DNA of 63,986 bases, the filler included, from Streblomastix strix (Eukaryota): NCBI GenBank assembly GCA_008636045.1. It is 3 parts of 3 records of this genome, joined end to end, with 100 filler letters (N's around TTAATTAATTAA, not from the genome) between each part and the next. Parts side by side here need not be neighbours in the genome. Positions count along the whole stretch, not along the records: positions 21,993 to 43,866 come from SNRW01000346.1; 2 more parts are not named here. One strand, written 5' to 3'. The translations under genes were made by a program, and so were the position numbers. The notes under the pieces were generated by a model. It ran no database searches, was not told the origin of the DNA, and saw only the letters and a list, made by a program, of their open reading frames with translations. Positions 21,893-61,580 of the stretch are shown here, in pieces; within the stretch, counting starts at the first letter, position 1, and every line of letters starts with the position of its first letter.

Positions 21893-21992
21893 NNNNNNNN
21901 NNNNNNNNNNNNNNNNNNNNNNNNNNNNNNNNNNNNTTAATTAATTAANNNNNNNNNNNNNNNNNNNNNNNNNNNNNNNNNNNNNNNNNNNN
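21893..21992. other. Artificial contig spacer
   Basis: Exactly 100 nt: Ns flanking TTAATTAATTAA, the standard six-frame stop linker. Confidence 0.95.
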
Positions 21993-22004
21993 TTAGAGGA
22001 AGAA

Positions 22005-28583: not shown

Positions 28584-29751
28584 ATGTCCAATAGAAATAA
28601 ACCAATTAACGAAGTAATTGACATTTTAATTTTTAAGCCTGATAAAATAAACTTAAAGGATTTCATTAGAAATACCAATAATTATTTTAATTAATAATTT
28701 ACAATAAATAATTTAGAGCAGAAAATTTAAAATAAAACAATTTCGCAATGGTATAAAATTTATTTAGATAATTATTTAAACTATCACGCTGAAAGAATTA
28801 AATAAAATACCAAGCCAAAATAAGTAAAGGAATAAATTGAGTCAACGATAATATAAAATCCCTTCAGAAACAAAGCAAAAGATAAAACAAATATAGTTCA
28901 AGATATAAAATTGAAATCATTAAAGAAATACCAACGACCATATTATTCGCCTTTGTTAAGTAGCTGGGAAATTGACGTTATTTTCATAATGCATCCAACA
29001 ATAAATAAAATCAAATAGAATTATCTTTTCGCCATAAATATTAATACAAAATATTTAATTGTTTATCCAATCAAAGATAAAACAACTAATGAATTACTCA
29101 GATGTATAAAATAATTAGTAAAAGACCAGCATGTTTCCAATATTCGTTCTGATGGTGAGGCCGCCCTCGGTAGCAATCAAATAAAGGACTATATAAAATA
29201 AAATGGCATCACATATTATTTTACCTCATCCAAATTTATCAACAAAAACCGAATTGTTGATTCTGTTATCCGAACTATAAGAAATGCATTTGAAAACGAT
29301 GACCAACTCATGGCTAATAATAAGCAAATGTAGCAAGTCGTTGATGACTACAATAACTCTAAACATTCGGCGTTCAAGAGTAAATTTACACTTCAGCAAG
29401 TTAATGAATCAGAAGATTTAGAAGGTATATATATCCGTTAGAAAATAAAACAAGCAGCCAACATAAAAGAACTATAAACAAAGGATAAATTATTAGACCT
29501 TCACTAAGGGAATATATTAATGATTCATCTAGATCTTTCAAAAACCCAGCATTACTTTTAAAAGAAACGAAGATAATTTAATGAAATCGCCGTATTTATT
29601 AATTATAGCCATGGAAACGTTATTTGTGAATTATTAAGGCCGTATAAAGATATTAAAACTGTTGAAGTTCCCATTTTTACTATACAAAGAAAGTAACGGA
29701 TTCTATTGATACTTTATAATAGAAATATAAACGAATTTTAAGTTAAATTGA
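28584..29751 (+). CDS. Retroviral-like (rve) integrase; frameshifted
   Basis: SWEIDVIF (D1), YLFAININTKY, NIRSDGE (D2), KNRIVDSVIRTIR (third acidic position is D) and YNNSKHSA. Confidence 0.88.
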
Positions 29752-29781
29752 TTTAATTTTTTATTTTTTATCAGTTAATAA

Positions 29782-30246
29782 ATGGAAGGTAAATAAATTG
29801 AGAAAAAATCACGTAAAAAATATGTAAAAAAAGGGAAGCCATCAATGAATCCAATTGTGGAACCATCAATGGAACCAGTAATGGAACCGATAATGGAACA
29901 ATCAGTGGAGCCATCAGTGGTCCCACCTGTGGGGCCAACGACAGAGCCGCCAATGGAACCGTTAATGGAGGCTCCAATCGGCAGGCCCGCAACACCAAGA
30001 CAAAGTATGCCACGAAAATATTACACTGAAGAAGAGGCTAAAGATATGGCTAGATTACAACGTAAATAATTCAAATAACGTTTGAGAGAAAAATAGAAAG
30101 TATTTAAATCTGACATTTCTGAGCAATAATTATCAGCCCAAAAGTTGTTAAATAAAGTTGCTTTATCAAAGGAGGATTTAATTAAAATCATTGATATAAT
30201 CGAAGGGAAGATAGAGCAGGTAGATGTAGCAGTATAGACTTTTTGA
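29782..30246 (+). CDS. 154-aa protein with PxME repeats and a GRP...RKYYTEEEAK DNA-binding-like motif
   Basis: Intact frame with TAR=Gln extends ORF-track 29845..30069; 12-nt repeat units. Confidence 0.75.
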
Positions 30247-31468: not shown

Positions 31469-32930
31469 ATGTCAAACATCGGCATGCAAATTATTAGCTC
31501 TGACTCAGAAGAAGATTTTGTGACGTGGAAGACCACCATACCCTCTGGCTATAATTCATTTCAAGTGAATAGCATTAATAATATACCAATAAATTTAACC
31601 TATTATTTAAATAGTGATTATATAGAAATATAGCACAATATTATTTCTACCCCCTATAGGAAAATACATTATTAGCAGGATAACGGAAATGGTTACTTTT
31701 CATTATAAGTATTAATGGAGTTGCCCCCAATCAGGCTAAATTTAAATACAGCTACAAATAACTGATATGTCGATGACCAAGATAATCAGGGATATAAATA
31801 CGTTTCATAATTGCTTGCTCTTTAAGTTCCTTAGTTTATTAATTTTATTGATGGATAAGAAAAATATTTCAAGTTATAATCAACCACTAATCGAGGCGCT
31901 ATTTGCTTTAATAACCCCCAGAATGAACATACATAAAAATTATCAAATAATAAATTTTCATTAAATACAAATTATGGACACGATATAGTAAGTTCAGCAA
32001 TGAATTATATAAATTTAAGAATTTACGCGTTCCTTTATCATTATTGGATAATGGACTATAGCACAAGCGTAGCATATCGAACAATAGGATTAATCCGATT
32101 ATATTGTCCAACTACAAATAATTTTATAACTTCTGTTGAACCATTATCGCCAAACGCATTATCTGTACGTTATTTATTTGGTAAGCGCATAAATATTACT
32201 TCAGCGGGTGCGATAACAACATCAGATGACCAGCCAATAAATGTTTAATAATAGACCATGCAATAAATAATCAATAATATAAATACTTTCCCAGTGAGAA
32301 TAATATGCTCACTACCAGCACTCACCACTCAAGAATGGACGGATATTTATGCAGCTGTAGGAAGATAGGGCTTTTATGGCTAATTCATCGCGGAAGTTGT
32401 TGGTGAATGGTCAGTAGTTGAACATATTAATTGGTTCGCTAAAAAAAATAATATTGTCACCAAATTAATATGCTTAATTAGCTGAGGCATTGGATTTATA
32501 TGACGGGATAAATGAGAATGGATCAAATTAAATATCAAATCTTTCGTCGTCTATAAAATAGATTGATTTAGAAACATGGTTTTATAAGACTAAATTTCCT
32601 GCTAATAGTTTGATTCCTGACCTGCCAATATTCAGCCCATTCATAGATAATTTTATTGACTATCCACAGATATTAATTATATGCGTAAATAATTAATTGA
32701 AAGGAATAACGATGGAAACAGTCGGAGGTAATCGGTTCAATAATGTATGCTTCAAATAAAACTTGGTTGATGATCCAGTTTTATGGTTTTAAAATATGCT
32801 CTCGCAAGAGTGTTTTATTGTCTAAAATAAATCAGTGATATTTACATTATATGATAACTTTGGCCGTAAGGTGCCAACATAATACGGGGATATGTATAAT
32901 AATCTTTTACTTGAGATATAATTTAAGTGA
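31469..32930 (+). CDS. Candidate minor capsid (penton) protein; frameshifted
   Basis: About 485 codons, beta-rich. The C-terminus VIFTLYDNFGRKVPTQYGDMYNNLLLEIQFK resembles the hxhxDxxG...hxhxh end of Polinton/virophage mCPs (pattern recognition only). Confidence 0.5.
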
Positions 32931-33350: not shown

Positions 33351-36300
33351 ATGTCATACTTAAAGAAGAAGGAAATTTTGTTATTGCTTTAAACAGTTGG
33401 ATAAAATAATGTAAATCGCCGCTTAAGAGTACCCGCACTAAAAAATTAACTAAATCAAATATTTGATTAATTAGAATACCCCAAAAAGGAAGAAACAATT
33501 TAACCCAATTAACGTATTTTACAAATGCAGTACGTCAGCGATAAGTTGCTAAATCTTAGAATTAACAACAGCCGCAGGCGGAGGTCGGATGACCGACCTA
33601 ACAATAACAACAATAACAATAACAACTAATGTAGTAAATTAACCAAGTCAATTATTTCCATTAAAATTAATATGAATACGATTTGCTTGAATATAGACGT
33701 AAACAATAATAAGAATAAGTATAGCAAGAATATGATTAATAGATCCAATAGCATTTGCTTAACGAAACAATTTAATTCACAAGACCCGAGAACTTTAGCT
33801 GGACCAGAAGCAATTTTGTTTTACCCCAAATGTACATTGATATAATATAGAACGAAGAAATAAAGGATAAAATTAATAAGTACAATAATGGTGAAGTTAA
33901 TGAGATTGAAAATGACTGGTCTAACACCTTGCTTTATTTTCCTCCATAATAAAAGGATAAATTTATTGAAGCAGTTGATGAAACATTCAAAGGGTATCAT
34001 TTTGAAAAGGATATTGAAGGTGAAATAAGCAATACATATTATAATTATTTCATTTATTCTTTAGGTGAGATAAATAAATTTATTGATGACGTCTATGAAA
34101 AATAAAACCATAAAGCATTTAAAATTGCCTTTGATTTTGGGGTGATTTATGAGGAGAAGAATAGTGACAAGCTGGGGCACCTATCAGTGTCATACGGTAA
34201 CATTCGACCCAATGAAGCAAAGACATAAAAGCACACCCCCAAATCAATCATTAAAGGGTAAGACATCGAAGAATATAAGGAGTATGTTAAATCAGAAATA
34301 ATAGATATGTAGAACTTTAATTTAGATAACACAAAATAGCGTTTCTTAGCGATTTATTCAATGATGATAAAAAAGTTCAAATTATCACAATTTCACATAG
34401 GCGGCAGCATTAAGAAATTAATTGATTTTCATTTGAAAAGACATAAAAACTGTTTGGGAACGACAAGAAGCAAATATAATATATGCTGGTTTTACGCCTA
34501 TAATTTATTTAAATATCCTGACACCCCAGAGAAAGGAATTAAAGAACATTCACGGGAGCTCATGGCAAAAGAACACATGGCTAAATTTTATGAATTACCA
34601 TATGAAACAGATGATAATGAATTTCAAAAATGGCTAAATGATTTCACAGGTTTTGACATTGAAACAGAAATTGATGAATTCGTTTTAAGGGAGAAAATTA
34701 ATGTAAATATATATAGTTATTCAGTGGAAAGTTAAACATATCATCAGTCAAAAGTGTATAAACATAATGAAGACGTTAATGAAGCCGCCGATGAATCCAA
34801 TGATGAAACAGTTAATGAGCCCGTTGTAGTTCCTGACTTTAATGTAGTAATTGACGAAACCAGCCCCGAAAAGGCCATCCAAAGGCTAAATGATTAAGCC
34901 GCAACCCTTACCCAAGCTTTTTATATCTCGAATAAAGAAACTTTAACAGGATTGAAATTTTGCCCCTTCTGTACATAAAAAGCATCTGACCCTAAAGACA
35001 TTCATTTCGTGGCACAATATGAGAAGCACATTAAGAAATGCGAGATAAATAAAGGTAAAATTGTCAAAGAAATTAAATTGGAAGCTGAACAAAGGTCATT
35101 TTGTCCTCATATAAATTAGAACAAAATATATTAATTCTTGCTAGCAAATAATCGAGAAAATGAATTTTAGCCTACATAATATTATATCACTTATGATTTT
35201 GAAACAGTGGAGAAAATAATTAATAAAGATTTTGGCAAATCAAACAAATAGATTTCATAATTGGTTCCCCTTTCTGTAGCCTCGACAATTAAGAACAAAT
35301 AAGGTATAAAAACAATTTACTATGATTTGAGAAATAGCGATGATTTTATAAATTAATGGCTCAAATAAATATTTATAGAAGCAGAATAAATTAACCATGA
35401 CAATTAATATATAAACGCTGACGTTCCATTTGACGTTGAAGTTCCAATCGTTGGTTTCAATAGCGCAAAGTTTGATTTTGCTTTGATATTTAAAAATCTA
35501 TAATCATCGGACTGGGAAATTAAAAGCTATATTGGTAGTTCTTCACAAGTGAAATAAATTATTGATAAAAATAAGAACTCATAAATTAATCTAAAATTCT
35601 GTGATATAATGGTCTATGTTCAAGCGATGACATTGAAGGATTTTGCATAAAATTTCTCTAGCTAAAAAGATAATAAAAAATGCGTATTTTCAGATGAATA
35701 TATTAACTCTGATAATTTTAATAATGTTCTTGATAATACTGAGCCATTCCCTCAAGAGGCTTTCAATTCAACACTAAAGAACTCATTAGTGAATAACGAC
35801 GAATATAAAAATTATTTAGATGACGCAAAATAATTTAAAAATAGATGAGAATATTTATAGTACTATAATGAACAGGATATAAAAATAATGATAGCACCAA
35901 TAGACAATTTAATATAAATGAATTGCAAATATATAATTGATATGTTTAGTTTTATGTCCATAGCTGCATGTGTAAACGCCATCAAATATGCATTTTCTTT
36001 TTAAGATTTTGATATAAATTCTAATTATCCTCCTTGTATTGATAACTCTTAAAAGTTCATTTTATATCCCAGTTATTGGAAATATAAAGTAGATAGTTAT
36101 AAATTCCAGGACTAAATTAAAAAGATAGACCCAACAAATAACGTACGAGTTGATGATTATGAATATTTTAAGCAATTTTTCGAATCTTCTGTATGTGCCA
36201 TTTGCTGCGATAAATTTACAATGATGAACCGCCCAACACTCGATCGAATCAATAATGATTTACCACATACCAAACATAATGTATAACCCTGCTGCTTATA

Positions 36301-37920
36301 TTGCAATAAATAGTGTTCAAATAATGATAAAAATATTAGTAAATTATTTATTCAACTTCGAAGGTTTTGAATGTTGCACTGTCTCCCTACAAATATAACC
36401 AATATAGACGATTATAAATTTATCCGTGGCGGGATAACTGGAGGTTTATCTAATGTCATGCATAGAGAAAATATAACAAGTAAAGATTATGTAAAAAAAT
36501 TCGTTTATAATGCAGCACATAAAAAGGTTCATGTTCAAACATCAAATAATCTAATGTCTCATATTATGGGTGCTGATTTTAATTCCTTATATCCCAGCGT
36601 CGTGTCATCAGAGCCACATAAATTTATAAAATACACAGGAAATAAAATGTATATAGCTGGCTTCGTCATTGGTAGGACAAGTGATAAACAAAACATAATG
36701 GATATAATTAATAATAAAAATAGATTCACCCCACAGAGTCAATTATTTATAGCTGAATTAAAGGGGCACATCGACGAAAAATATATTAATGATTTTGTTA
36801 ATTTCCCACCTATTTAAGAAACTATACATTTACTACGAATGAGGAAACCATTGGGTCCTACATGTATAATCATATGAAAAATAATGGTATTAAAACAGAC
36901 CGAAAATAAAGAAAATTAACAAATTTATTATCAACGATGGAGGAATTTATGTCTTTCAACTCTTACTATCTATGATTCTTGATTGATGACTGCCATTTTA
37001 TTATTGTTGATGTAAAACAATTAATTTTATATAATAAACATGATGGATTTAATCCGCTCGTCAAGGAATTTATAGGCAAGAGAATATAAGCGAAAATAGA
37101 AGGAAATAAAGGACTAGAATAATTTTGTAAAATAACGATGAACTCCTCATATGGAACCGATGGAATGAACACGGAGAAATATATCGAAATTAAGGTCATG
37201 GATAAGAAGGGAGCATTAAAGGCCCATTTATCAAATACTTTTATGGATGAACAATAATTATCTGATAATGCATACGCGGTATAAATGAACCCCGAAACCT
37301 GCACATGTAAGACACCAATTTAAGAGGCATATTTTGTATTGAATAATGCCAAATTTTGGTATCTTAATTTTAAATATAATTTTATGCATAAAGCTTTTGA
37401 CATGGAAAAAATACACTTCATAGAAGGCGATACTGATTCGGCCTATTGGAACGTTAGTGGGGACGCTAATGCAGGATATTTATAATAATTTAACCATGTG
37501 ATTAAAGATAAATAATTCTATGATGATAATTCAAAATATTTCTTCCCCACTATTGAAGGTGATTTACTCGATGAGAAAAAAATACTAGGATTAGCTATCG
37601 AAAATGAAGGAACCGAAATGATAGCACTAGCGCCTAAAAATTATTATATCAAGGTAGGGGAGAAAGAAAAAATAAAATTAAAGGGGGTCAATTAGAAAAC
37701 GACTAAAATTAGCAATTTAAATATAGTGGATAACATTAATAGTGGAACGATAACGAAGGTGACTAATATGAGGCTAGGGTAAAAGAATTATATTATGTCA
37801 AAAATAGAACCACAAAAGAACAGCATTACTGGGATACACACCAAGGCTATTGTACTAAAAGAATAAAGCTGTTGTCCTTATATTCTTGGTCTTAAAGCTA
37901 GTGATTACGTTATTGATTGA
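33351..37920 (+). CDS. polB: Protein-primed family B DNA polymerase with N-terminal TP/vOTU-like region and HNH insert; a few lesions
   Basis: YNICWF, CPFC..HxxxC, ExoI YYITYDFETVE, ExoII GFNSAKFD, ExoIII YYNEQD, HNH CAIC..TLDRINNDLPHTKHNVQPCCLYCN, IRGGITGG, A ADFNSLYPS, B KITMNSSYG, C EGDTDS and LAPKNY. A few frameshifts and in-frame TGAs (~35846, ~36368). Confidence 0.95.
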
Positions 37921-37977: not shown

Positions 37978-38848
37978 TCATCGAGCAGCACCAGCCGGTG
38001 GGGACCCCCACTGACTCAAAAATAAATTGTTTTCATTGATATAATATTTTAACTAGGTCATCCAATTCATTTAAGAACTTATCATTATCCGATTTTTGAA
38101 CTTCCATTGTGGAATAACGAATTGATATATTTTTAAAGCTTATCCTAATATTTTTTATTATCTCATGGTTTCCACTAACTGCTACGGGTAAATCATAATA
38201 AATTTTGATAAAGCTTTTATCTTCTTTAAAGTTATTTTTATGCTGTCTATGGAACTTGTATTTTATTGAATCTTCTTTTTCTTCGATTAATTATAAAGCT
38301 AAAATATAATTGTTTTCTTTGTCAATGGGTATAACTCTTGGTTTCAATGATTAAATTTGAATATCTTTATCAGTATTTAATTAATTTAATTCCCTTATAA
38401 TTTACTATATTTTGCTGTTAGCATGTTATTCAATGGCTTCAATAACCTCTGGATTAATTGTTGCTTAAACACGACTATTTACCTAGTCCATTATTTTATG
38501 AACATAAACAGCGTATTTTGGTTCAATCCATGTTGCCACGTAGTTGATTAGGATAGGGCTGATATAATAGCCTTTGTAAGCATTTTCAAATCCTTTATTT
38601 ACATCATACACTAATGGGTATGCCTGTTATTGGGCATGCTCAGAATCATCCGTTTCTGCTTTTAAATAATCTTTCCAATGTTAAGATTCAATTAAATTTC
38701 TAAACCGCCTATTATATTAATCACAAAATTAAGTAGCAATAATGTAATGGTCTTCAGTCTTAATCAATAATTTTAAACCGTTATATGAACCTTCAATTAA
38801 ACGAATATTGTTGTTTGAAATTTTAGCGATAATCCTAACTTGTTCCAT
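37978..38848 (-). CDS. KilA-N domain protein; frameshifted
   Basis: GSYNGLKLLIKTEDHYIIATQFC...KGYYISPILINYVATWIEPKYAVYV matches the KilA-N pattern. The 3' end is approximate. Confidence 0.8.
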
Positions 38849-38944
38849 TTTATAAGCTGATAAAAAAATAAAAAAATAAAGTTGTTTCCAAAATCGTTTT
38901 ATCGGTAGTTGCAATATTACAAGGACTCAATTTTTTATGATTTT

Positions 38945-40022
38945 TCAAAATAGTCCTTGGCTACCACCCGAGACCATAAATTCTATTTCTTAATATTTCA
39001 TAAAGACCGAGCCACTTATTTAATACCATAAATTCATATTTATTTAGTGTGTTATACAATTGCTAAAATTCTTCGTAATAAAAATTTTAAATTGAATTCT
39101 CCTCATACTCCTATTTTAAATCACTCTCGCCTGAATTAACTCCTAAACAAATGACATGCGACAGTATCCTCGCTGTCTTAAACAAATAACTTGGCCGTTA
39201 AGCTATAAAGAATATGGTATTTTTTCTATGGCGAGAATCACTAACCAAATGGATAATGGTCTTGGCTAATGAGCTACTAAAACGTTATATATCAGCATTG
39301 GATCCAATGTCATCGAAGATCATTAATGTATTCAATAATAGAGCATCTTTTAGGATGGGTATTTTTAGTATTTTAATATCCGCGGTTTATTTATCGTCAA
39401 TAACTTTTAACTTCTTTTGAAAGGATACATTTTAAATTAATGCTGGGATTTTGAACCGCAATATTGGACTGGGTTATGAGTATTTATTTATGGTCTCCAT
39501 CACTATAGATTAAAATAGCTCAGTTATTCGTTCAATATATTTGTCTGGTTGCTCGGCCACTTCGTGGCGGTCTGCCGACTCCCTCTTAATCGGATTCGCT
39601 TCTATTATTTTTTCTTTCATTCGCTTAATAAAATCGCTATTGTAATCAAAATTTTATTCCCACAGCTTATAATAAGTATATACTTCTTTAGTGCTATATT
39701 TTACCTCGTCAAACTCTGGCAAAAAAACCATAGCCTCGCTATATGTTATATTCACTATTTATATTCCTTTGCTATTTTAATTTAATGCCATTGTTTCATC
39801 CGCTCCAAAATTAGTGAAATATAATATAAATGGATTAATAATTCTTTTATACATAACGATTAGCTTGTACATTAATGTAGTTTTACCCGAGCCAACAGCC
39901 CCAACGATATAGTGGTTACCGTTGATGAGGAACAATGATATTTTCGTAAGGGGACGCGTTTTGTATTCATTCAGTAAATTCTTGTTTGTAAATTATATAT
40001 TTTGTAAATCTGCTAATAACAT
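38945..40022 (-). CDS. A32-like packaging ATPase (second, divergent type); one frameshift
   Basis: Walker A HYIVGAVGSGKTT, Walker B LMIFDDIG, SRHRKNTIFFIAQ (Arg-His and Gln motif). Confidence 0.88.
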
Positions 40023-41636: not shown

Positions 41637-43565
41637 TCATTAATTTTAGTAGAATGGGTTAAATTACAATGCATGGTCTCTCCAGAATACAGTAGTTCCA
41701 TCATTATAGAATCCGCCATCTGTTCCAAGACTTTTTGCACCCCATAAGATTGTATTACCTTATGAATAATTAACTAATCCGCCAGCAATAACCTAGCCAT
41801 TGAAAGTAAACGTGTTTCCATTAGCTGTTTATAAATTGAGTCTGATATTCTTATACCTTAATTATATGATACACCTTGAGTATCACCAATTGGATTAATT
41901 TATACTGAACCAGTTTGTGTAATTGGAAATAATTAATATATACCTCTTTACCCTGTAGGCAAAGCTGAATGTGTGTCAGTGGTTAATATATCAGTAATAT
42001 TTCCCTAAAATGCGCTTATATCGGTTTAATATATAAATGTATTATAAGTAAAATCATCAATTGAACACTATAATTCTTCATATCTATTTATACCAGTTCC
42101 AGAATATATTATCCATGCGCTATTCAAACCGCAAGATAACGAAGGGATAAACTAATACTACTATTTATCAATTCTTATATCACTAGTCAAATGTTAATTA
42201 AATTATATTTTTCCAAATCCACTTCTAGTATTTATTTTGAATTCTATTGAATTATCAGTTGAAGAATTTAAAGCATTAAACGTACATAATTTTATATACT
42301 AAGACTATTCAATAATTTGATATAATTTGCTTGCTAAAACGGATTTTATAGTATCCCCATTCGCTAGTAATATGTAGTTATTTGTTCCACCTGTTTTAAT
42401 AAATGTAGTCGCGGAAATGTTTCCATCATATGTTAATTATTGAGGATGAACATGGTCATTTCTACAGTAATAATCACTCGTACCATTAACTGCTGCGGCG
42501 GCATTTACCAGTAGCACATTTGCCACAGTTGGATCAACATTAAGGGGGTGTTAGTTCTGAGCACTGGCATATATATTAGATGTGCATGCCGTTCCCGTTC
42601 CTGAATCTTTTAGCGGTACGTCATTACTTAGATTTACATGATGGGTATGGTCAGATCTAGCATAAGTGGCAGCAGTGCCTACTTCACCTGTTTCGGTATC
42701 TGCGGAAGGTAAAGCAGACGAAACTTATAGTGGATGTTAATGGTCCCCTCTAACATAATCATTTTAAATTCCTGCAACACCTGCGCCACTATCAGCCAAT
42801 GGCACCGCATCACTGGCTGGTGATACCTAGTCTGGGACCATATCACCACTATTATACCAATTATCGGAGTACATCCATACGGTCACTGACACCGCACTGA
42901 ATGCAAAATCACCAACAACGGAATTTAGCAAATTTTAAATATCTGTGTTCAATAAATAATATCCCCGAAAATGCTACTATCGCGCAAGCTCTTACTAGAT
43001 GGTTATTATATCATTTTTTACCCCAACAATATCAGCGTCAATGGATCCGATAGTAGATTATAATTAATTTACTTCATTAATTAATTAGTTAATTTAGGCG
43101 ACGAAATCAAAATTTAGAACCTTTAAATTCTTTACCGTTAACAAACCATCGGGGGCAATTTTTAATGCAAAATCTGAAGCTTGACCATCAATGATTTAAT
43201 TATTGGCAGCATAAACTAAAGCGTTATCGTTATCTATAAACAATTAATAATCTTCANNNNNNNNNNCATTCTACTAGTCTTGAAGAATTACAGCCTCAGA
43301 TAAATGAATCATCCTTGGCTAATTTTCAAGCTAGCATAAATTTATTGGGGTACATTGTTTTAGTCGCTTTTGAACCATTATATAATGTAGTAGCATAAAA
43401 TAAATTATCATTATCTATAAACAATTTATAATCTTCATTTTATAGCATTCCACCCGCAGAATTTCCCCCACGTTTCGAATACTGGATATAATAAGCAATA
43501 TCATTAGTGATTAATTACCTAACAGTTCGGATTTGCTATTATGAAAGGCCGTTATTTCTTTGCAT
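41637..43565 (-). CDS. Phage-like tail-fibre / receptor-binding protein (assembly gap at 43257-43266)
   Basis: Coiled coil, FRGYY..GDFA..W module, repeats YVRGDHQHP, YARSDHTHH, YASAQNQHP and YCRNDHVHP, then ATTFIKTGGTNNYILLANG and a beta-rich C-terminus. Confidence 0.75.
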
Positions 43566-43615: not shown

Positions 43616-43822
43616 TCAGCGTTTATTTACCAATCTATCTACTGCTCCCGCAAGATTATCACCAACACCAAGTGCTGACCCGATGCCCTGATGAATCATT
43701 CCTGCTGGACCCGCTACCGTACATAATACTTTATGAAGAGTTGGAGCTATCCATTATGCAGCATGTTTTACTTCACCTAAAATTTTCGGACCAAAATTTG
43801 CTATTTTGCTGTAAAAACCCAT
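43616..43822 (-). CDS. 68-aa Gly/Ala-rich amphipathic protein (MG start), pVI-like candidate
   Basis: MGFYSKIANFGPKILGEVKHAAQWIAPTLHKVLCTVAGPAGMIHQGIGSALGVGDNLAGAVDRLVNKR; 207-nt frame. Confidence 0.7.
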
Positions 43823-43866: not shown

Positions 43867-43966
43867 NNNNNNNNNNNNNNNNNNNNNNNNNNNNNNNNNN
43901 NNNNNNNNNNTTAATTAATTAANNNNNNNNNNNNNNNNNNNNNNNNNNNNNNNNNNNNNNNNNNNN
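43867..43966. other. Artificial contig spacer
   Basis: Exactly 100 nt with the TTAATTAATTAA linker. Confidence 0.95.
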
Positions 43967-46900
43967 ATAGTCAATCAAAAACCATAAAATGTAGCTAGTG
44001 AAGCACATAAATTGATTATGTGTTGATAGCAACGATGTTAGGTTTGTAGTAGGTTAGTCAACAGTTAATCCCTATGCCATCATTTTGTTATACATGAACT
44101 CACCAAACTATTCAATTGAATTGTTATATGTTAATTTCCTCCATATCGGTGCTAAATTTATGTGTGAATTATATACATCTCATCAATGTGCCCCTTAATA
44201 CGAACACAAAATAGCTATCCCTTGTCAGTATATCGATCGGAGCTCATAATTATATCTCGAGCTTTCTATTTCGAACTATTAGATGTACATTTGAAATAAC
44301 TAGTTACTCCCCCAGCTTGATATATTCGATTATTTATATAAGGGTTATTTTTGTAGAAGATACCACTAAATACACTTGGATAGAGAAAGTTGAAATCTAA
44401 ATCAAAGATGTGAGTAATTATATGTTAGGTGTCATATAACGTAATTGTTTTAGTAACATGATTATATCTAAGTTTGTTAATATGTGTGATACATATCAAA
44501 TTACATTAATGATACACATTAGACAATCCACCTTACATACATTCCTTTAACATATTATATACAGATTCATTATTAATTGTCATAGGCAGAAGTTCATAGA
44601 TTGCATATTTCATTAATTATAATTATAATTTACTAATTTCATTCTCTCTGTCTGCCTTTACTGTATTACATTTTTTACAAGCTAATTAGCTATTTTATTT
44701 TGTATAATTATTTGCATTATCTATTCTATCTAATGTACGTCTATTTTCCTTAGTAAATTTGTTGTGGCGGAGATGACATGTTTCATTAAATACTTTATCT
44801 CTAATCCAATCAATATCATCCTCATTAACATTATTAATAATATTTTTTATGCGTATTCATCTTGATTGATATATTCTTTAATTTTATTATTTAACCAGTA
44901 TTAAATAACTTTAAATTATTCATAATCATTAACTATATTATAATTTGCTGTGATGTCGTATTTTCCATAACAATACTTATACTAAATTTAACAAGCAATG
45001 TCAACGAATGATATATATCCTAGCACATCAACTTTCTCATCCCATTATATTTGAATTAGATAATTGATGGGGTTTATCATTCAAGTAACATCTCTAATAT
45101 TATAGTGTTTTAGATATGCCCACCTGTCAGCAAAATTTCCCGAGTCAGTGATATATTATTCATAATCATCATGGCTAATGTTTTTATCGTTCAGTTTGTC
45201 ATAAAATTCTTCCTTAACAAATGTTGTTAGAGTTAATATTTATAAATAATTATCATAATTGAATGAACCATATGGAAATATCCTTTTTATTAGCCTTATA
45301 CCTTTTAAACCAAATTCTTCTTCGAATTTCTTTAATGTGATATTTGGTGGAATGAATGATAATATATCAATAAATCTCAAATCAAAATCATAACTAATAT
45401 GTGATATCGTTGTTTATTTAGCTTATGTTGTTGAACCCATGTAGGAGTAATTTAGCTATTATTTTTAGTTAAGTATTTAATCAAGAAATTCATATCAAAT
45501 TACTTGGAATTAAACCCAATTACTGATATTTGGGGTTTATATGGCTTATAGTTTTTATCTTCAATTGTAATATCAGGTATATTTGATTAATTAGCTTAAT
45601 TAACTTTAATAGCAACTTCAAACAATTAGTTTATCTCTTTTTAGATAAAATCAAATCAATCACGCAAAGCAAAATCTAAATTACTAATAGTATCAGTAAT
45701 TGTAGCGGCTGATGCCACTGATAATGGTTCAAGTTAGGCATGCAAATTATCAATATCATTAATAATCTTCTCAATAGTCTCAAAATCAAATGTAATATAG
45801 TTTAATGAAAGCAAAAATTAATCTGCTTATAGTGATGCAATTAGTGTCTATTGTAATTTATTATTTGATACATGTGGATAATATGGCTTTGGTTAATAAT
45901 CTAATTTAACTTATTTAGCTGTCTCTGGACCCTAACAATATTTCAAACCTCTTACCAAAACACGTTAATAATTCTAGTTTTTTAGTTTTAAATATTTTCT
46001 AACAATTGCGGGGACATGTTTTTCTATTATTAAATTTATCAATATTGGTAATATACATATCATGAACTTCATCAACAAATGACAATGGAACTAATAATAC
46101 ATTAACAGTTAGATAGTCCTTGTCAATAATATACTCTTCAAATTTGTTAAATTATTCAACATCACTACAATTTTTTTATTTTTCACCTAATCAAATGTGC
46201 ATGTTATTACATTTAGTTTGAATACTTATTAATATTTTTCGACATCTGTTACTTAACTGAAACCTTTATATTGTTCGTATAGTTGTTTATTAGCCTTATT
46301 TAATCTGCTGCCAGGGTTAGTATCATGGAATTAGAGGAACAATTTAATGACATCGTATATTCTACTCTTTGTCTCAATTATATCAGGGTGTAAGGCAAAT
46401 GATGCTGTAATAAACCAACATATATTATACTCACAATCAGCATCTCTAGTAATTCCTTCCTTATTGAAGTGTTGGCATATTTATTGTAATTTTGTGCCTA
46501 GTGACAGCATATAAATAACAAGCAAAAGCGAAAATAACGCAATCTTTAATGTTGATGAGTCCTCATGTGCATAATCTTAATATTATGCCAATAATTCAAT
46601 GGCATGCACTTTAAATTCCTCTTTACTGGTGATATCACGAATAACTATTAAACCTGAATGGTTTTTATAACTATTATCAGTATTTGGTCTTGTGAAAACA
46701 TAATTATATTCATCAGTAGTCTGCAAATGCTTATAAACTTATTACTTTTTCTACCAAATAGATCCAAAATCAATATATATTTTAAATGATTTTGCTTTCA
46801 CTAGCTATTTCTCATAGAAATGATTATAATAGTATTAGACATATGGCACTTTATTATATATACCTTTTGATACTATTAATGTATCAGGCAAGCCTTCAAT

Positions 46901-47230
46901 ATTAACCTCCTTTCTATCCAAATATCTCTAATGAGTTTGGGCTAGAGTTGCATACACTTATAAATTTAATGATTCCGATTTTTAAGTATTAAACTCATTA
47001 TATAATCCTCTATCGTTTCCATAGTACGTTTTAATGAAGTTCTTTGTTCTCTAATCAAATTCTTTAGCCCCTATTTCTACTAATCACAATAATTTCGGTA
47101 TAGCATTCAGCACTACTGACTATCTTATTTTGATTTATTTTTTCTCAATTGTTTTATAGATTCTTTTCATTTTTGACAAATATATTCGATAGTTCTAATG
47201 CAAGTACGTAGTTTTTAATTATCAAATCAT
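43967..47230 (-). pseudogene. polB: pPolB of a third lineage, degraded, C-terminus cut by the contig end
   Basis: YNICWFITAS (~46420), YITFDFETIEK (~45785), IGFNSK (~45510), YLKHYNIRDV (~45100), TLDRIDN..ACKKCN (~44700) and LDFNFLYPS (~44385). Confidence 0.88.
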
Positions 47231-48067
47231 ATTAAACTTTATAAGTAAAAATAATGTATTTTTAAAAAATATGTTATATCTAATTTGTTTTTATTTTCGA
47301 AATACATTCATTAATTCAATTAAAATAAATTAATAAATTTTTTCTAAATTTTCGGTCATTTTTTCATATTAAATCAATTGTTTTTGAATTAAAATGTATT
47401 AATTATATTATAATTAAAAGTGAAACGTACTATATGATCGAAATTCATTTTTGAATCAATAAATTTTAACCTTAATTATACATTCGTTTCCTCATTTTTT
47501 CGTATCATTTTTGAGTCAAATTTTAATATGAAAAAATTGATTTAAAATTTTTTTCTTTTTCTGTTTCAAACAAATGGTGATAAATAAAACTTAGGTTTTA
47601 AATGTACTCTAAATTATCGCTCTATAATTATCTGAACTAAGATATTTATGATAAATCGTCAGCAATGTAGTTGGCCGTTAGTGGATAATTAAATATTTAT
47701 AATTTTGAATTTCAAGGAACGGATGTCTTTGATAACTACGCCAACGACATGAATAACGAAGTTTCTAATGAATTAACATCTACTAATTCTTTCTTCGACG
47801 ATGAAACAAAAAAACATGAAAAATAGTTAGGTTCATCTCCACAACCGCAAAATACGTTAACAAATATATTCATTTAATTTATAACTAAATATTTTTTCCC
47901 TTCATCAGCATATAATACGTCCCATATCGTTGATGATGGCTCTTGTAGAGTATGTGTATTCAATTTACACTTCAAATCAAAAGGTTTTTAAGGGAAAACA
48001 AAAGAAGCAGGTCAAATTGCAGATTCGATAATACCTGCTGATGGTAAAAGTTTGGGATTTCCTGCAA

Positions 48068-48893
48068 CTATATATGGGAGTATCCGATCACAAACAACCA
48101 CCTCAATTTTTTTTAAAAATAATGTAACATGATTTAAAATTAAAAAAAGTTGGAGTTGTAAAATGTTTAAAAATCCACCATGATGGAATTGCGCGGAAAA
48201 TTTTTTTTGGTTCGCTAACCAGCGGTAGGTTGTACATGCTCTTGAATTTTATTTAATTTATTTTATAAAAATTATTTATTAAACATTATTAATATTTGCG
48301 ATATTTTTAGGCACCAGCGATGGAGAAAAATACTTTTTTTTATATTTTCCATTTTTTGAAACATTCAAATAATTATTTTTATTAATTAATATTTAATTTG
48401 ATGTTTTTTATTTTATAATTAAATTTTATATAATAAAATTGATAATTTTTAATCTACATGACGCAAATTCGTGATTTTAATATTTTCATTTTCGCGCATT
48501 TGTACTTTTGTCGAAATAAATTTAATATTCGAATTTTATAATTTGTATTTTATTGTTTATTTACATAAATTGTCATAAAAATCTAAAATTAAACATTGGA
48601 TGATTTGAAAAATAAAAAATAAAGAAAATCTTCGTTTTTGCTTGTGCCAGTGCCTAAAAATATCACAAAAATTAGTTATATTAATTATTAAATTTAAATA
48701 AAATAAATTAAATAAAATTTATTAACATATGTAAACTCCCGATGGCTCTCGAACCAAAAAAATTTTTGCGCAAATTCGCTACGATGCATTTCTGAAGATT
48801 TTACAACTCCAACTTTTGTTTGTCTTAAATCATATTATATTTTTTTCAAAATAAAAAACAGAGTGGTTGGTACTGATCGGAAACACTCATATA
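48068..48893. mobile_element. MITE/foldback-like non-autonomous element with ~300-bp imperfect inverted arms
   Basis: 48068-~48370 is the inverted counterpart of ~48590-48893 (e.g. AAAAGTTGGAGTTGTAAAAT / ATTTTACAACTCCAACTTTT; GATATTTTTAGGCAC / GTGCCTAAAAATATC). Ends are TATA-rich; no ORF. Confidence 0.75.
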
Positions 48894-49149
48894 GAACAAA
48901 AAGCGAAAGAAAGAATGATTTTTATGTGAATTATTTTATTGTAAATGCTCAACTTAAAATTCTATACTTTTAATTATCTGAACCATAAGAGTCAATCCCA
49001 TAAGATTCTGTTGATATTTATAAATATTGCGCTAGTGGAATGTATTACTTGTGAAAAACAGCGCCAGCAACTTCAACGAAAAGCATTATTTTGGAACGAG
49101 AAAATGGATTAGGTATTGAATAGCTTTTAACTGCACCAAGGGCATCAAT

Positions 49150-49205
49150 TCCATTGAGTCAGAAATTTTTATCAAAAACTGCTGCCAGCTTGCCATTCTG
49201 CCAAA
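49150..49205 (-). repeat. Conserved intergenic viral element, copy 3 (core only)
   Basis: Reverse complement TGGCAGAATGGCAAGCTGGCAGCAGTTTTTGATAAAAATTTCTGACTCA. Confidence 0.75.
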
Positions 49206-49231
49206 AATAAGAAATAAAAATAAATGGTATT

Positions 49232-49600
49232 TCAAACATTAGTACTTATATTTTTCATTGGTTCTATAATTATATTCTACCACTCTGTATATCAATGGGT
49301 AATTTTTATCATAAATATTCATCGTTTCTTAACGTATCAAAATCTTATCTAAATTAGCCATTTTTATCTGCTCCATAATCATAATCAAAAAATGAACTAG
49401 CAACATCTAACCCTTTACCTATTGTTTAGCCGAAAGGGCCCAGTGCTCCAAGTATAGGTTTAGAAAACGGTTTTATGAACGGTTTATAAACGTTTTCATT
49501 AGTACATTAAATACTTATCCTTACTTTTTTAACTAATTGCATTATTTTTGAAAACACGTCGACTGCCATCGTTTATTTGAAATATAAATAAAACTTTATG
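49232..49600 (-). pseudogene. Amphipathic small protein relic (possible counterpart of 43616-43822)
   Basis: VYKPFIKPFSKPILGALGPFGQTIGKGLDVASSF. Confidence 0.4.
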
Positions 49601-49989
49601 TGTATTATTTTGGATTTGAATAAATGATTTTAATTTTTTGATTTTAAATGTTTCGTTAGTACTTTTCATTATCATATTGGCACATTGGTACATTGACTTC
49701 TAATTTTTATAATGAGTCAAAAATGCCATCAAGGTATGGACACCCTGACCACTTTATAGAAATTCATTATTAAAACCAAATTACCGTGCCAAAATCATGA
49801 ACTTTTATATTTTAAAATAGATGAGCATCAATAGTTCATTATTTCATTAATTATATATTGAACTATTTTATTTTTTTTTGAAAGTAAAAAGATGAATATA
49901 TTCAAAATGAAAGCTACACATTTACAACAAGCAGGAACAAATGAGGAAGTATTGTTAGGTAATGCGGTTACTTCATTAACTAATGATTG

Positions 49990-51603
49990 AGAAAATCATT
50001 ATTCTATCAAATAATCAAACCAGGATCATAAATGACAGCGTTGTTTGATAAAGAAATAATCATTAGTTTATCAGAAACAGACAACGATATTAAATAGACA
50101 TAAAATTCGTTCTTGTCAGTAGTGCTAACTGCTAATATTTAACTCGATGAAAAATTTGATAAAATTGACGAATCATATAAAACGGATTGGTTCTATTTGT
50201 AGGTCTCAAATCAGGTTCAAATCTTATTAGAGAATACACCATATATCACAGAGGCATTATCATTGATGGAAATCTATAGAATGACGTAACAACTCCATCA
50301 TTCATTTATAACATAATCAAGCCAAAAAAGTGAGAAAAATAATAGAAAACATATTCATTCTCTTTATGAGAATATTCATAAATTTGAAACTTCAGCGTGT
50401 GGAATATATATAAGTATGCGTGAGATTGATGAATTAATAGGAAATCAAACATCTGTTCCATATATAATTCCAATTCGTTTCAGAGATAATATTCCAATTG
50501 ACGACCTTTTGATATTCTCTGCCTTCACTGAATATCATAATGGCTTATTTGGTGATTTAAAAATAAAATTCAAAATAAATCCTCATACATTCGTTTTCCG
50601 TTAAGTAAATCGAAATATTTCAATGGTTAAATATTATACAATGAATATAGATGAATTATTGGGTAGTAGTCAGTAGAAGTTAATAGATATCGATTTGGTG
50701 ATCAGAAATTAGAGTCCGACATTCCAATATACAAAATAATTTACATAACTTGGATGCATTGTTGATTTGATTAAAGGACTACTTGAGGAAGTACTAACTG
50801 AGTCAGGATTGAAGAACTTTGTATGTGACATCAAACCCGTTACCATAAGAATAAAAAATTATATCATTACTGAGATTGCTGCACATATGGCAGGTTATAA
50901 AGCTACTGATGCATACTTTAATCGAGTCAGAAAATTCTACAGTTAACGTTCATTTGCCGTACTTGCTCAACGAGTAGAAATATGGCTATTTCCGACATCT
51001 CCTACATTTACTGGAATATGAACATCTTAAAATATTACTCTGTCTCACGTAACCGACTTCTTCCGTTTATTTCTTAAAGATGCAAGAGCAACAACTTGCT
51101 TAGATAATCCTTGCTATTAGAACAGGTTTTTAACTACCTATGGTCGCAACTTTCCAGATATGCTATTGAATATGCTTGTCCAATAATTCTTCCAATTATA
51201 ACTCAATGCATCAAATCTTGACCTGTTATTCGAAGCCACTAATGAATTTGAAGATACTTTGTCAACTCTAAGAAATACAGCTACTCGAGGACTGAATCCT
51301 TACAATGATTTAACAAGCCTTTTGATATCAATTTAATGTAAAAGGAACAGCAATGGAGTATTAACTTTCGATGAACTAGACACTAGGAATTAAATCACTT
51401 CTGTTGAATTAAGAGAAACGCCAATATATCAAGGGGCATTGGATACATATTATACTGTTGATGCAAGTGGAAAGAGACCACAACCTCCAATTCTATTCAC
51501 AGTTCATGACAAATTTTAGTTGTTCTCACCAGTAGTAGGTGAAAGCTGTAAATATGATACTAACCATTCATTTGATGAGGTAATTGGAACACCAAGTTCT
51601 TGA
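49990..51603 (+). pseudogene. Probable double-jelly-roll major capsid protein, disrupted
   Basis: More than 500 codons: LFVGLKSGSNLIREYTIYHRG, IPIDDLLIFSAFTEYHNGLFGDLKIKFKINP, TTYGRNFPD and NGVLTFDELDT. Size, strand pattern and context (KilA-N, ATPase, pPolB) fit an MCP; not confirmed by search. Confidence 0.7.
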
Positions 51604-52297
51604 AATAATTGAACATTTTAATTTTTTATTTGTACATATAACTATCAGCCTAAACACTAATAACAACATTAACTAAATAAGTTAATAAGTTATATCAGTT
51701 ATTTATTTTTTTTATTTCATAACAAATGGCATCGAATATAACTTCGGCATAAAACTTAAAATATTACACTTTGACATAAAGCGACGGAGTTGTTATCGGA
51801 GAAAACGGTTAAAATAATTTTGGTTTTGCATTACCTTTTGCGTTTGTAAATTCTGATAATTAAAGAAAAATAATATTCTGCTAATGTCATTGTTCAAACT
51901 AAGGCACTAACGAGAACATAAGCGTTCATAGTTCAATGGTTCAAGAGGTATAATATTTCGATTAATTTGTTGGTTATTGTAATGAATAACGAGTTTATAA
52001 GCCTTTCATGCAATACAACCACAAAATATATTTATACGTATGGTTCCATTAGAATTAAGAATTAATGAATATAAATTAACAAAAGTTAAAATTAATTTTT
52101 GAGAAGATGCTGGAATACTGATTCAAAGAAGTTGCTGAGCTGAATTAGCACGACGAACTGATGTTTATATTTTTGTTTATTTTTCTAGGAACTATTTTTG
52201 GTTGGTACAGTTCTATAGAGTAAAACTGTTCAAAATTAATTGATTTAAAAGTTAATCGTTATTTTTTATTTAAATCTAACTTTTTATCCGCTATAAA

Positions 52298-53493
52298 ATG
52301 GAAGCACAAACAGCATCAACTCAATAAATTACATCAAACAATGAAATTTTTATTCCTGGCACTTATATGATGTTTGGAATTATTATTCTTGAAAAAGATG
52401 GATACATTAATGCGACAAAAATAGTAGCTTTAATCAATGAATAGGAACATACAAACAAGCACTTAAAGACAATTAAATAGTCAATTATGTATTGAGAATA
52501 TAAACAATATTTGAATAATAAAGTTGCAGGGACAAAAACATCCGAATAAGTACTTGATTATTAATTGATAAATAATTATGGTAGTGACGTAAGAGGAATA
52601 TATATTCATATGGAATTAATAAATATCATATATATGAAAACATCGATAAAACATCTGCATTACGTGAATAAAAAATTGGAATTATTAGATGAAATAATAC
52701 AATTAGAACATCGATTTGATGATTCAACTCGTATGGCCGAATAAGCTTCTATAACATTAGATAGAAATTTAGAAGAATGATATGCAATAATCAATTAATT
52801 GAAAAAGTTAATTTTACAGAAAGAAAAAGAAAATAAATAATTAGAAACAAAAGCTGTTCCAGAAGGATATTAAACAGTTTATATATTCGCTGTTTAGGTA
52901 GAAGATGATAATGAGAATTATAACTCTGTTCTTAATTTTAGAAGGAGAAATAAATATTGTACGAGCAAAAAATTAATAAAAGAGTTGAAGGATAGTCTAT
53001 TATACTTTGGAAAAATATCAAAAAGTATGTCAAAAAATTATGAAATAAAAAATTTGTTATAAATACTGTTTAGAGATTAAATATAGTTTCATAAGTATAG
53101 ATACCTCTTTAAACCTGAATTAATGAATGATGTCATTAGTTTTATAAAGCACACGATGGAAGACAAATGAACGACATTATTTAATTTATTGTTGCAGAAA
53201 ATAAATGGAAAGAATATTGTTCGACAATAGAAAAAACAATTAATTATCCTCAAAATTATAAATAGAAACGGATGAATAAGAAGAAAGATCACTCGAAGGG
53301 GAGGTATAAGGAAACAAATAATTCAGGCAATTTGAGAATATTAACGATTTCAAATAATTTATTTCCTAAAATTAGTAATAATTATCTAAACAAACAACGT
53401 AAAAATTAAAGAAATTATATAAATTAGAGGATTATAAATTATGAAAAATAGAAGGTCTATTATGTTTAAGAACTTGTGCTAAAGATTGATTGA
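52298..53493 (+). pseudogene. KilA-N domain protein with coiled coil
   Basis: EKDGYINATKIV...RGIYIHMELI; internal TGAs. Confidence 0.8.
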
Positions 53494-54510: not shown

Positions 54511-55610
54511 ATGCAAGAATTAACAGAATAACAAATTCAATAAATATTTAATGCAGAACCAGCAAATGCAAGAAGAGAATTTGAAGAAGAAAGATAATAA
54601 GGCTCAAGTGGTGCAAGTGGTTAAGGTTTTATGGAATTTGATGGTATAGAGGATGATTATGATTATTATGAACCACAACCTGCAAGATAGGACAGAATGA
54701 AATCACGAACAAAACCGTTTGGTAGGCTGCCTTTCCATCCATCCATGATTCAAAGAACATGAAAGCTTGATAGTCCATAATTTAGAGAAGAAACTGGGGA
54801 TGTCCTTGCAACGCTTACTGGTTATTTAAACAGAGATATTAAGAAAATTAATATATTATCGTCTGCCATCAGTGCTTAACAATACATAAATGATAAACAT
54901 TTGGACAAACGATTCAGTATATACGAATAAGACTTAGATGATAATGAAGCAACACCAGATAATGCGGTTGATTATGATAAGAAAAAGAATACAATTTATT
55001 CTGACGATGGTTATACAACAGCTGTAGGATTTGGTGATAAAGACCATTAACATAAGAAAATTTGGAAGAAATAATATTATACTGATGTTAATGATTTAGA
55101 ACAAACAGCATTGGCAGCCAAATTTAAACAATAAGGTATAAAAGATGGTCCTTACATGAAATGGCTATCAATAACTAAGCCATATAAAGTAAAAGAAATA
55201 AAACTACATAGTTTCAGAGTACTCGTCCTCGATACAAAAAAATCATAGACGCTAATGGAGATATATAACTATCAATCGCTACCAAATTTCAAATATTGAT
55301 ATAAGTTCGGAATTCTGTATTTATTACTCCTGCTGTTGAAATATTTGAAAAATAAAACGTGAAAATAGACTTATATAACAGAAATAATGAAACAAATGTA
55401 AAATTCTGAGGTTATGAATTTTTGCCAATTGCTAAAAGAGCGCATAAGAAAGAATTACCCACCGTTATTGCATAACTATATACTGATTTACAGATTGGTA
55501 ATAAGGTTACGTTAGCTCTTGCACAAGCAATATAATATTATGGTAATATTATAGAGTAGAGATAACAATAGATTGGTGGTTATGATTTAGCTAAATACAA
55601 GTTCGTTTGA
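54511..55610 (+). pseudogene. Conserved viral hypothetical protein, divergent from the ATPase
   Basis: Paralogue of 1-1012; EQDLDDNEATPDNAVDYDKKKNTIYSDDG. Confidence 0.7.
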
Positions 55611-55629
55611 AACAAATGATTATTTCTAT

Positions 55630-55780
55630 TAATGTTTTTCATTGTTCGCAGATTGGCAGTCTAGTAGCAGTTTCTGATGAAAGTTTCTGACTCAGAACAC
55701 TCGGAACACTCGGAACATTCAAATGTCATTTACTATCCACATCAATTTGTCGTGCCTTTTTTGACTATTTCAATGAAGAT
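55630..55780 (+). repeat. Conserved intergenic viral element, copy 5
   Basis: CGCAGATTGGCAGTCTAGTAGCAGTTTCTGATGAAAGTTTCTGACTCAGAACACTCGGAACACTCGGAACATTC. Confidence 0.8.
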
Positions 55781-55847
55781 TTATGACTCGATGTCCTCAA
55801 CAATTCTGATTATTAATATAATTATTTTTTATTTATATTTTAAATAA

Positions 55848-58800: not shown

Positions 58801-59745
58801 AAATATAAGAAAGAAATAGAGACATAGGTAACAATATCATGGAATATGATTGTGCGTTCTATAGAAAATTATTTCTATCGACAGGATGCCATATTTGTAA
58901 AACACGAATAACAAGTAAAATTTCACTAATATTAGATAGATTCAACAACGACAAAGGTCATTCTGCAGATAATGTGAAACCATCTTGCCTATTCTACTAT
59001 AAATTTAAGTCAAATATAGATGGCAATTTATCACTTTTAATTATATAGTTGAAGAATTTTTGTCTCTTGAAGTCGCTTCAAATTACAATAGCTAATGAAG
59101 AAATTTATAAGATTTTACTTTCTGGAATTACTGGTGGATCATCATAAGTTATGCATAGATATAATGTTGCTGGTGAGACTAAAATAAATTAATAAAAATA
59201 AATTAATGGAAATGTCATTAGTTAGGAAACCGACAACGCTATGATTCATCTTTTAACTTTAGATATCAATTGTTAATATCCATCAGTTATGAGCTCAGAA
59301 CCGCATAAATTCATAAAATATACAAGCAATAGATTGTAAATGGCAGGTTAAATATTAGATATAATTATTGATAAATAAACAGTTAGAAATTTTATTTATA
59401 ATCCAAATAGATTTATTGACGTTAAAAGAATGCTTATTATTTTTCGCAGTAATTAAAGGATACATCGATGAATGATATATTAATGATTTCAATAATTTTC
59501 TTCCGATTTTAAGAAACATTAATATTAAGACCGATAAATAAACGTTAGGTTCATATATGTATAATCTACTACTGAAGAACAACATGTAGCACGACAAAAT
59601 TGAACGAAAATTAATAAATTTATCATCAACGCTTGGGTAGTTCATGTCGTTCAATAATTATTATTTGTGGCTACTCTGTGATGATTTTCATCTCATTATT
59701 GACGATACTTAATGTGTTATAACATTCTGTAAGTACGATAGATGA
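55848..59745 (+). pseudogene. polB: pPolB, same family as 1271-6200, truncated before motif B
   Basis: YYITYDFETVE (~57860), GFNSSKFD, CHIC..LDRFNNDKGHSADNV and LDINCQYPS; collinear with copy A until ~59740. Confidence 0.9.
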
Positions 59746-60003
59746 ACTGCTTATGAAAATAAAAAAAATAATAATTATGCTTCCCATATGATAAAGCAAA
59801 GAAAAAGGTCAAAGGAAATGAAATGATTTCAAAGAAAAATTTATGTATAAAGCTTAATTTCTTCTTGTTAAACTAAAATGTATGAAAATTTTTATAAAAA
59901 ACATTACTTGTTAATTCTATCCTACCTTACTTTTCAATATGAACAATACTAAAATTTATTTTTATAAATAAAAACAAAAATAACAATTGATATTTGTTTT
60001 CAT

Positions 60004-61173: not shown

Positions 61174-61231
61174 TTAATTTAAGTAAAAAAATAGATACTA
61201 TATGTCAATCATTAGTTTCAACTATAAATAA

Positions 61232-61580
61232 ATGTTAAATCATTCACTAACGCAATATGTATATGAATTACTAGATAGTTAAGTCACTAGTAAACATGAG
61301 ACATAAAGCACAGTTCACAAGGAAATTAACTTTACGTATAATTCTATTAACTTACTTATAGGATAGAGAGGAAGTGATAAGTCATATAACGTATTTAAGG
61401 ATTTAATCAAATTGTGTTAGATTAAGAACTTTTAAACAATATATATGTTACTGATAGCAATAGTGACTATACATATAAGAAAATGAGTGCATTAATCAAT
61501 ATTCCAATAAAGATTGCTACTTATGGTGAAATTGATGGAGTACTTAATGATTTAATTGAGGCAAAAGCAGCTTACTATAT
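61232..61580 (+). pseudogene. 5' fragment of packaging ATPase (22-kb type), truncated
   Basis: MLNHSLTQYV...LLIGQRGSDKS (Walker A G to D). Homology stops at ~61575. Confidence 0.8.

Follow-up and report, generated by a model that had tools for sequence, protein, structure and literature searches.

A broken copy of a probable virion fibre gene from Streblomastix strix, with a shaft unit related to gut-bacterial prophage proteins

Phage-like fibres in Polinton-like viruses (PLVs) and virophages are already published, as are viral elements of Streblomastix strix that are read in genetic code 6. In the available part of the survey of these code-6 elements, 820 capsid genes are counted in S. strix (PMC10120064), and metamonad elements are left unplaced among the PLV groups in what is accessible of a recent preprint (bioRxiv 10.64898/2026.06.19.733378). 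The HxH pair is described as an iron-binding fibre motif of T4 gp37 and other fibres in the consulted part of PMC11705849. No prior description of a fibre family in S. strix was found in the literature searched, a coverage that leaves subscription journals outside. Here, we analysed a stretch of S. strix DNA of 63,986 nucleotides, filler included (GenBank assembly GCA_008636045.1), which is referred to as the window. We consider it probable that the gene at 41637-43565 is a broken copy of a family that is hundreds strong in S. strix, and that the product of this family is likely a trimeric fibre for attachment of an endogenous Polinton-like virus, with a shaft likely captured once from a gut prophage.

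The fibre gene copy and its family in S. strix

The first-pass annotation had taken 41637-43565 as a single gene. It is not one reading frame, since it is interrupted by an N gap with a change of frame and by a deletion with a frameshift near 41830. The parts of the copy are as follows, with P0010 being an intact relative.

43392..43565, minus strand: N-terminal piece of the fibre, likely the capsid-anchoring end; 88% identical to residues 1-60 of P0005, in a frame that differs from that of the body
43257..43391, no strand: non-matching stretch with a 10-N assembly gap (43257-43266), flanked on both sides by a duplication of about 49 bases
42974..43108, minus strand: coiled coil of about 45 aa; helix 14-63 in the P0010 model, weak LPP leucine-zipper match (E 0.009)
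42845..42973, minus strand: small beta domain with FRGY...GDFAF...TVW, common to gut prophage proteins by BLAST and profile matches
42443..42830, minus strand: four His-box repeats of about 31-34 aa, predicted metal-pinned shaft; three intact RxDHxH boxes, the third box degenerate
42356..42412, minus strand: FIKxGGT...LxANG connector, here ATTFIKTGGTNNYILLANG, the last conserved block before the variable part; the pattern is common in viral contigs
41890..42350, minus strand, limits approximate: variable beta-sandwich domain, likely receptor-binding; the P0010 equivalent (268-419) matches the C-terminal region of WceF
41828..41860, minus strand: junction of deletion and frameshift; the distal GIRIS...GLQISADG module or modules are gone, and P0010 residues 438-605 (168 residues) are absent
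41637..41828, minus strand: C-terminal end of the fibre, a conserved part that shares 82% identity with P0010 residues 606-666; its frame differs from that of the body

The body begins at 43255, in a frame other than that of the N-terminal piece, and contigs of related copies connect 43256 directly to 43459. At the deletion junction, the summed contig depth is 54-93, compared to hundreds to thousands on both flanks. In relatives, 52 complete distal modules were counted, with lengths of 60-74 aa. A 32-base GT...AG stretch at 41856-41825, picked out by eye, is unlikely to be an intron that bridges the frameshift; it coincides with the conserved GIRIS codons, and the whole module would still be missing. 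The window copy is broken, and a full-length fibre cannot be made from it. The existence of extracellular virions, which had been read from this gene, does not follow, since a broken copy shows ancestry as a virion part and not present-day virions.

The four His-box motifs claimed from the first reading are all in place when the minus strand is read in code 6 (YVRGDHQHP at 42757-42731, YARSDHTHH at 42664-42638, YASAQNQHP at 42571-42545 and YCRNDHVHP at 42469-42443), with spacings of 31, 31 and 34 aa, and the coiled coil before them and the connector after them were likewise located (42974-43108 and 42412-42356). Boxes 1, 2 and 4 are intact RxDHxH and box 3 is degenerate, so the description as four repeats of about 30 aa holds with one box impaired. 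Two or more RxDHxH boxes arose by chance in 0 of 20,000 shuffles, compared to three observed in 468 aa. In the window copy, the third box has lost one histidine, while both are retained in 69/73 rows of relatives; for boxes 1, 2 and 4 of the same alignment (A3) the corresponding counts are 68/73, 67/71 and 67/71.

The 468-codon body carries 20 TAA and 11 TAG codons in frame compared to 6 CAR codons, which bears out the earlier claim that TAR is read as glutamine and that the DNA is not bacterial contamination. Phage or bacterial contamination of the gut sample might be suspected because the only sequencing run containing the stretch is a termite-gut metagenome and because the relatives of the fibre are bacterial prophage genes. 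However, the in-frame TAA codons across the conserved region already refute this reading, and the whole window yields only 8 ORFs of at least 100 aa in table 11, compared to a 3,066-aa frame in code 6; contamination is left with a negligible probability. In addition, an S. strix gene model matches the window at 30.7-36.2 kb, where identity in some segments reaches 99-100%. To our knowledge, recoded phages reassign TAG or TGA, not TAA.

Among 7,996 candidates scored, 434 match the fibre family at E<=1e-3. The best 120 of these 434 are all named S. strix, and 4/120 had been automatically named 'Tail fiber protein'. Up to the connector, the relatives are 55-90% identical; past it, the identity is 36-53%, and the coverage falls from about 115 to 87 and then to about 50 of the 120. 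Shafts and tips were compared in these best 120 matches only, 73 of them with a scorable tip, and the sequences are public gene models, some of them mis-spliced. At 65% identity, the shafts form one cluster (68 proteins) and the tips form 21 clusters (73 proteins). A comparison of the tip among genomic copies had been proposed from the outset, and the tip proved variable: among 425 pairs whose shafts are at least 80% identical, 332 carry tips that are less than 35% identical or unaligned. At the level of these gene models, shafts are shown to be conserved and tips to be shuffled within the S. strix family.

The element around the fibre

The genes near the fibre were assigned within the limits set by the linkers of the window.

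43867..43966, no strand: masked linker around TTAATTAATTAA, like the linker at 21893-21992; stops in all table-11 frames
43616..43822, minus strand: ORF of 68 aa immediately upstream of the fibre; its N-terminal helix is amphipathic, and the product is likely a membrane-active core peptide
38793..40022, minus strand: P-loop ATPase, likely a packaging ATPase; Walker A GAVGSGKT and Walker B in the sequence, weak P-loop Pfam matches only
38033..38848, minus strand: KilA-N protein (PF04383, E 6.7e-17)
33629..37917, plus strand: protein-primed family B DNA polymerase (pPolB), in pieces; PF03175 at 28.2 bits (cut-off 25.8) for 36976-37917, PHROG 1907 at E 8.4e-9
32349..32930, plus strand: possible C-terminal half of a penton, an unproven candidate; single-sequence model with pLDDT 34, no PDB sequence match
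28584..29801, plus strand: probable retrovirus-type integrase; PF00665 at E 1.7e-5 and 25.4 bits, below the cut-off of 32.6

The linkers are likely artificial joins of unrelated contigs, so that the window likely consists of three contigs and the element is cut at 43866. Because the linkers likely join separate contigs, only 21993-43866 is taken as the true context of the fibre. In the 68-aa ORF, the hydrophobic moment is 0.42-0.48 over residues 1-34, and the peptide is frequently joined to the fibre in public gene models, which amounts to a conserved adjacency; the peptide may resemble adenovirus protein VI. The ATPase is fused to the fibre in gene models P0124, P0126 and P0127, and no A32 family match was obtained for 38793-40022 in Pfam and PHROG scans. 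The ending of the 32349-32930 product presumably resembles that of pentons.

A Polinton-like virus had been proposed as the context of the fibre. The neighbouring genes fit a Maverick/Polinton-like element, but no capsid gene was found on the fibre-bearing segment (21993-43866), which is itself cut at 43866. Self-BLAST found no terminal inverted repeats around the element, one end of which is missing. The Polinton-like assignment is well supported by the replication genes, as judged from their sequences, and unproven by capsid linkage.

The absence of a capsid gene from the fibre segment also bears on a different reading, in which the protein is phage-derived cargo of the element or a variable surface adhesin used by the host for its symbionts, outside any virion; the very high copy number and the variability of the tips would fit a repertoire of adhesins as well. 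We regard this reading as improbable, since the gene keeps a fixed adjacency to the amphipathic-peptide gene and is linked to the ATPase in other copies, a signal peptide or membrane anchor is not evident in the sequence, and many copies are broken. In addition, the 820 capsid genes given for S. strix in the available part of PMC10120064 are of the same order as the fibre count.

Other features of the window and of related elements were recorded. Beyond the linker, an interrupted gene at 49987-51600 (plus strand) looks by eye like the S. strix major capsid protein in the available part of the supplement of PMC10120064; after it come what may be a penton gene (51579-52118) and a fragment that resembles KilA-N (52325-53077). 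Another type of element, with pPolB-like pieces on the minus strand, lies at 44083-49665 and includes a possible short fibre tip (47602-48132, plus strand) and a second amphipathic-peptide ORF near 49312-49570 (minus strand). A third element with pPolB is present in two copies that have diverged (75-78%), at 19-5304 and 54624-59743, the segment 22443-24126 is repeated in inverted orientation at 59911-61574, and a second, broken integrase copy at 6864-7848 (plus strand) is 34-47% identical to the integrase at 28584. Very long code-6 frames at 11153-22407 (plus strand), with internal repeats at 14.7-21.9 kb, likely encode a repetitive host surface protein, and another 10-N gap lies at 20083-20092, with a 127-base duplication. 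Gene models P0124-P0127 represent S. strix elements with a second fibre-like gene beside the ATPase, which carries the motifs QTITGxKxF and IKxGGT...LLANG.

Relatives in gut-bacterial prophages

A profile of the shaft (A1) gave 2,350 matches among 1.84 billion representatives, the top one being P0130 (E 1.6e-116). Most of the best 150 of the 2,350 are Streblomastix-like by similarity, and all five that were checked are so named. In P0130 and about a dozen other proteins (including P0170, P0173 and P0211), a unit of coil, FRGY domain, spacer and His box is repeated two to five times. Such coil-FRGY-His proteins come from metagenome-assembled genomes (MAGs) of Tannerellaceae or Bacteroides for 3 of the 10 looked up, and the Streblomastix unit is 33-48% identical by BLAST to the prophage proteins over 88-206 aa that cover the coil, the FRGY domain and the first His box. 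Among 18 genome loci, the top 7 are Bacteroides/Tannerellaceae MAGs (Bacteroidales), and the remainder include Bacillota and Treponema. Genes for tape measure, head protease, portal, holin and amidase surround the fibre-unit gene in locus L256. In L276, genes for a tape measure and a tail-collar fibre come before the fibre-unit gene; in L001, the order is tape measure, tail protein and then a protein with nine boxes. The nearest relatives of the shaft unit outside Streblomastix are thus found in prophage virion modules, in line with the phage derivation claimed at first reading. The term tail fibre is kept in part: the homologues belong to virion modules, but the best prophage loci place the gene between capsid-region genes and the portal, and 'virion fibre' is the safer name.

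To place the units, a tree of 46 was built with one unit per protein or locus, 12 of them from Streblomastix proteins; the 'Bacillota-like' label of L273 is a guess. No single branch separated the chosen outgroup from the other units, and the position of the root is uncertain. All 12 units from Streblomastix group in a single clade (100/99) nested among prokaryotic units. The closest relatives outside Streblomastix are prophage proteins, not the ordinary host proteins that would have spoken against the first-pass annotation. The sister group of this clade (90/81, not starred) is a mix of Bacteroidota, Bacillota and unnamed rows. Because the Streblomastix units form one clade among prophage units, the shaft unit was likely captured a single time, from a gut prophage. 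The direction of transfer, from prophage to protist virus, is also likely and rests on the distribution of the unit.

Searches of other collections were also performed. No loci were found in viral and metagenome contigs with the Streblomastix queries, nor with P0220; among GenBank phages, P0002 had no match and P0220 gave coiled-coil matches only. For the prophage unit, the ESM Atlas returned scores under 0.9 only, so PF22337 and PF12789 are treated as leads. The PHROG matches of the prophage relatives are mostly generic coiled coil, and their role as fibres is therefore deduced from gene position and shape.

The connector and the tip have a different distribution from the shaft. Among the viral and prophage ORFs compared, none matched the tip or the distal modules beyond the connector. 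The FIKxGGT pattern of the connector occurs in an estimated 910 or so stretches of viral contigs, and one of four FIKxGGT ORFs scanned matched a fibre family, weakly. His-box and connector motifs were found together in 0/122 and 0/127 viral ORFs; these are raw frequencies of motif scans of viral collections. Since the two motifs never share a viral ORF, the fibre is viewed as a mosaic and not as a copy of one known phage gene, in which the connector motif would come from other viral proteins than the shaft. The statement that both motifs recur in phage fibres was correct in that both occur in viral contigs, but never in the same ORF.

Two further groups of phage and prophage proteins were noted. 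Loci L255, L256, L257, L259 and L275 represent a Bacteroides prophage family with a coil-FRGY-His repeat protein of 900-1,600 aa, which lies between capsid-region genes and the portal and may be a fibre of the head or neck; this protein matched no specific PHROG family. P0178, P0203, P0240 and L176-L178 represent unrelated, GC-rich phage proteins with 10-33 RxDHxH boxes without the FRGY domain, a widespread repeat; the box repeat of P0128 and P0129 matched no Pfam family.

Proposed function and comparison with known systems

A model of P0010 was obtained with a mean pLDDT of 63. It is uninformative on the His-box region, because the pLDDT there is about 30 as a monomer. Foldseek of this model against BFVD gave 109 matches at E<=1e-3, and gp37 was the top match (E 3.9e-9, TM 0.17). 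The named matches in the top 50 are mostly phage fibre, tail or tailspike proteins, as expected for the fibre initially proposed, but the TM-scores are low. The likeness to gp37 is such a low-TM match of the distal half of a relative, and gp37 was not matched in Pfam, PHROG or PDB sequence searches. The sole solved-structure match above Z 8 pairs residues 268-419 of P0010 with a C-terminal region, that of WceF (Z 11.3, rmsd 3.6, 133 aligned); the P0010 tip matches C-terminal domains of tailspikes at Z 5.4-6.9, and T4 gp9 is also below Z 8. Pfam and PHROG fibre families gave no meaningful score for the window protein or for 8 full-length relatives, PDB sequence searches returned coiled-coil noise only, and Peptidase_S74 was not matched in the window pieces or in these 8 relatives. 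The modelled fold that the tip shares with other proteins shows no function, and we infer that it may bind glycans.

We propose that three chains would wind into a shaft, in which each HxH pair would place six histidines round one axial Fe or Zn ion, by analogy with T4 gp37. The N-terminus would dock on a capsid vertex, a surface glycan would be the ligand of the distal beta-sandwich, and a swapped tip would mean another receptor. The amphipathic peptide encoded next to the fibre would aid the breach of the membrane after uptake.

The receptor might instead be bacterial. If the fibre had retained a bacterial target, the virions would attach to the Bacteroidales ectosymbionts that coat the protist and reach the protist through them, and the tips would track the surface glycans of the symbionts. 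The nearest named relatives are Bacteroidales prophage proteins, Streblomastix bears filamentous Bacteroidales ectosymbionts according to the available part of PMC2717939, a gp37-like virophage fibre is reported to bind cyanobacterial LPS in what is accessible of PMC12724248, and the tip resembles C-terminal domains of tailspikes. However, the part in common with prophages is the shaft and not the tip, and the tree does not pin the donor to Bacteroidales; this reading is unlikely. Similarly doubtful is its extension, that the fibre came from a prophage of the host-coating type of Bacteroidales and that hundreds of tip variants are kept to use symbionts as receptor. An attachment fibre of the endogenous virus with a prophage-derived shaft is the reading that we favour.

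If so, the locus would record a traceable move of a virion part from a gut-bacterial prophage to a eukaryotic virus, with one origin and full recoding. The genome would hold a large library of receptor-binding tips, with which the question of whether the receptor lies on the protist or on its symbiont coat is directly testable. A fibre with swapped tips argues that metamonad elements spread as particles. The general phenomenon is known and the copy is broken, which limits the reach of the finding; the number of swapped tips is unusually high here.

The closest described systems share some of these features and differ in others, as far as the available parts of the sources go. The phage-like fibres of PLVs described by Bulzu et al. 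(PMC12220804) are likewise modular phage-type genes in protist PLVs and are taken to point to independent host attachment. They carry S74 chaperone, laminin G3, collagen, PTR or BppL domains, which were all absent from the scans of the 8 full-length S. strix relatives; His-box repeats are a feature of the S. strix fibre that was not met among the fibres covered there. Ltf of Gezel-14T/PgVV-14T (bioRxiv 10.1101/2022.07.28.501842) is likewise a phage-fibre-like PLV protein; it has gp36-like repeats and was shown in purified particles, while the Streblomastix protein is known from genes alone. In the virophage DSLV2 (PMC12724248), also a small eukaryotic DNA virus with a fibre traced to phages, the gp37-like tail proteins form a heterotrimer from three genes with a link to Synechococcus phages, compared to one modular gene with hundreds of endogenous copies in S. 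strix. T4 gp37 and other HxH fibres (PMC11705849) likewise have periodic HxH pairs, which in the S. strix protein lie along the predicted shaft; no sequence homology to gp37 was detected, and the RxDHxHP repeat, about 31 aa long, is nearer to unnamed prophage proteins. Finally, the Maverick/PLV elements of the Metamonada group in S. strix (PMC10120064) have the same host, the same code and neighbours of the pPolB and integrase type; that work counts capsid genes, of a type to which the present fibre may be linked, and the words 'fiber' and 'fibre' are absent from its main text as available.
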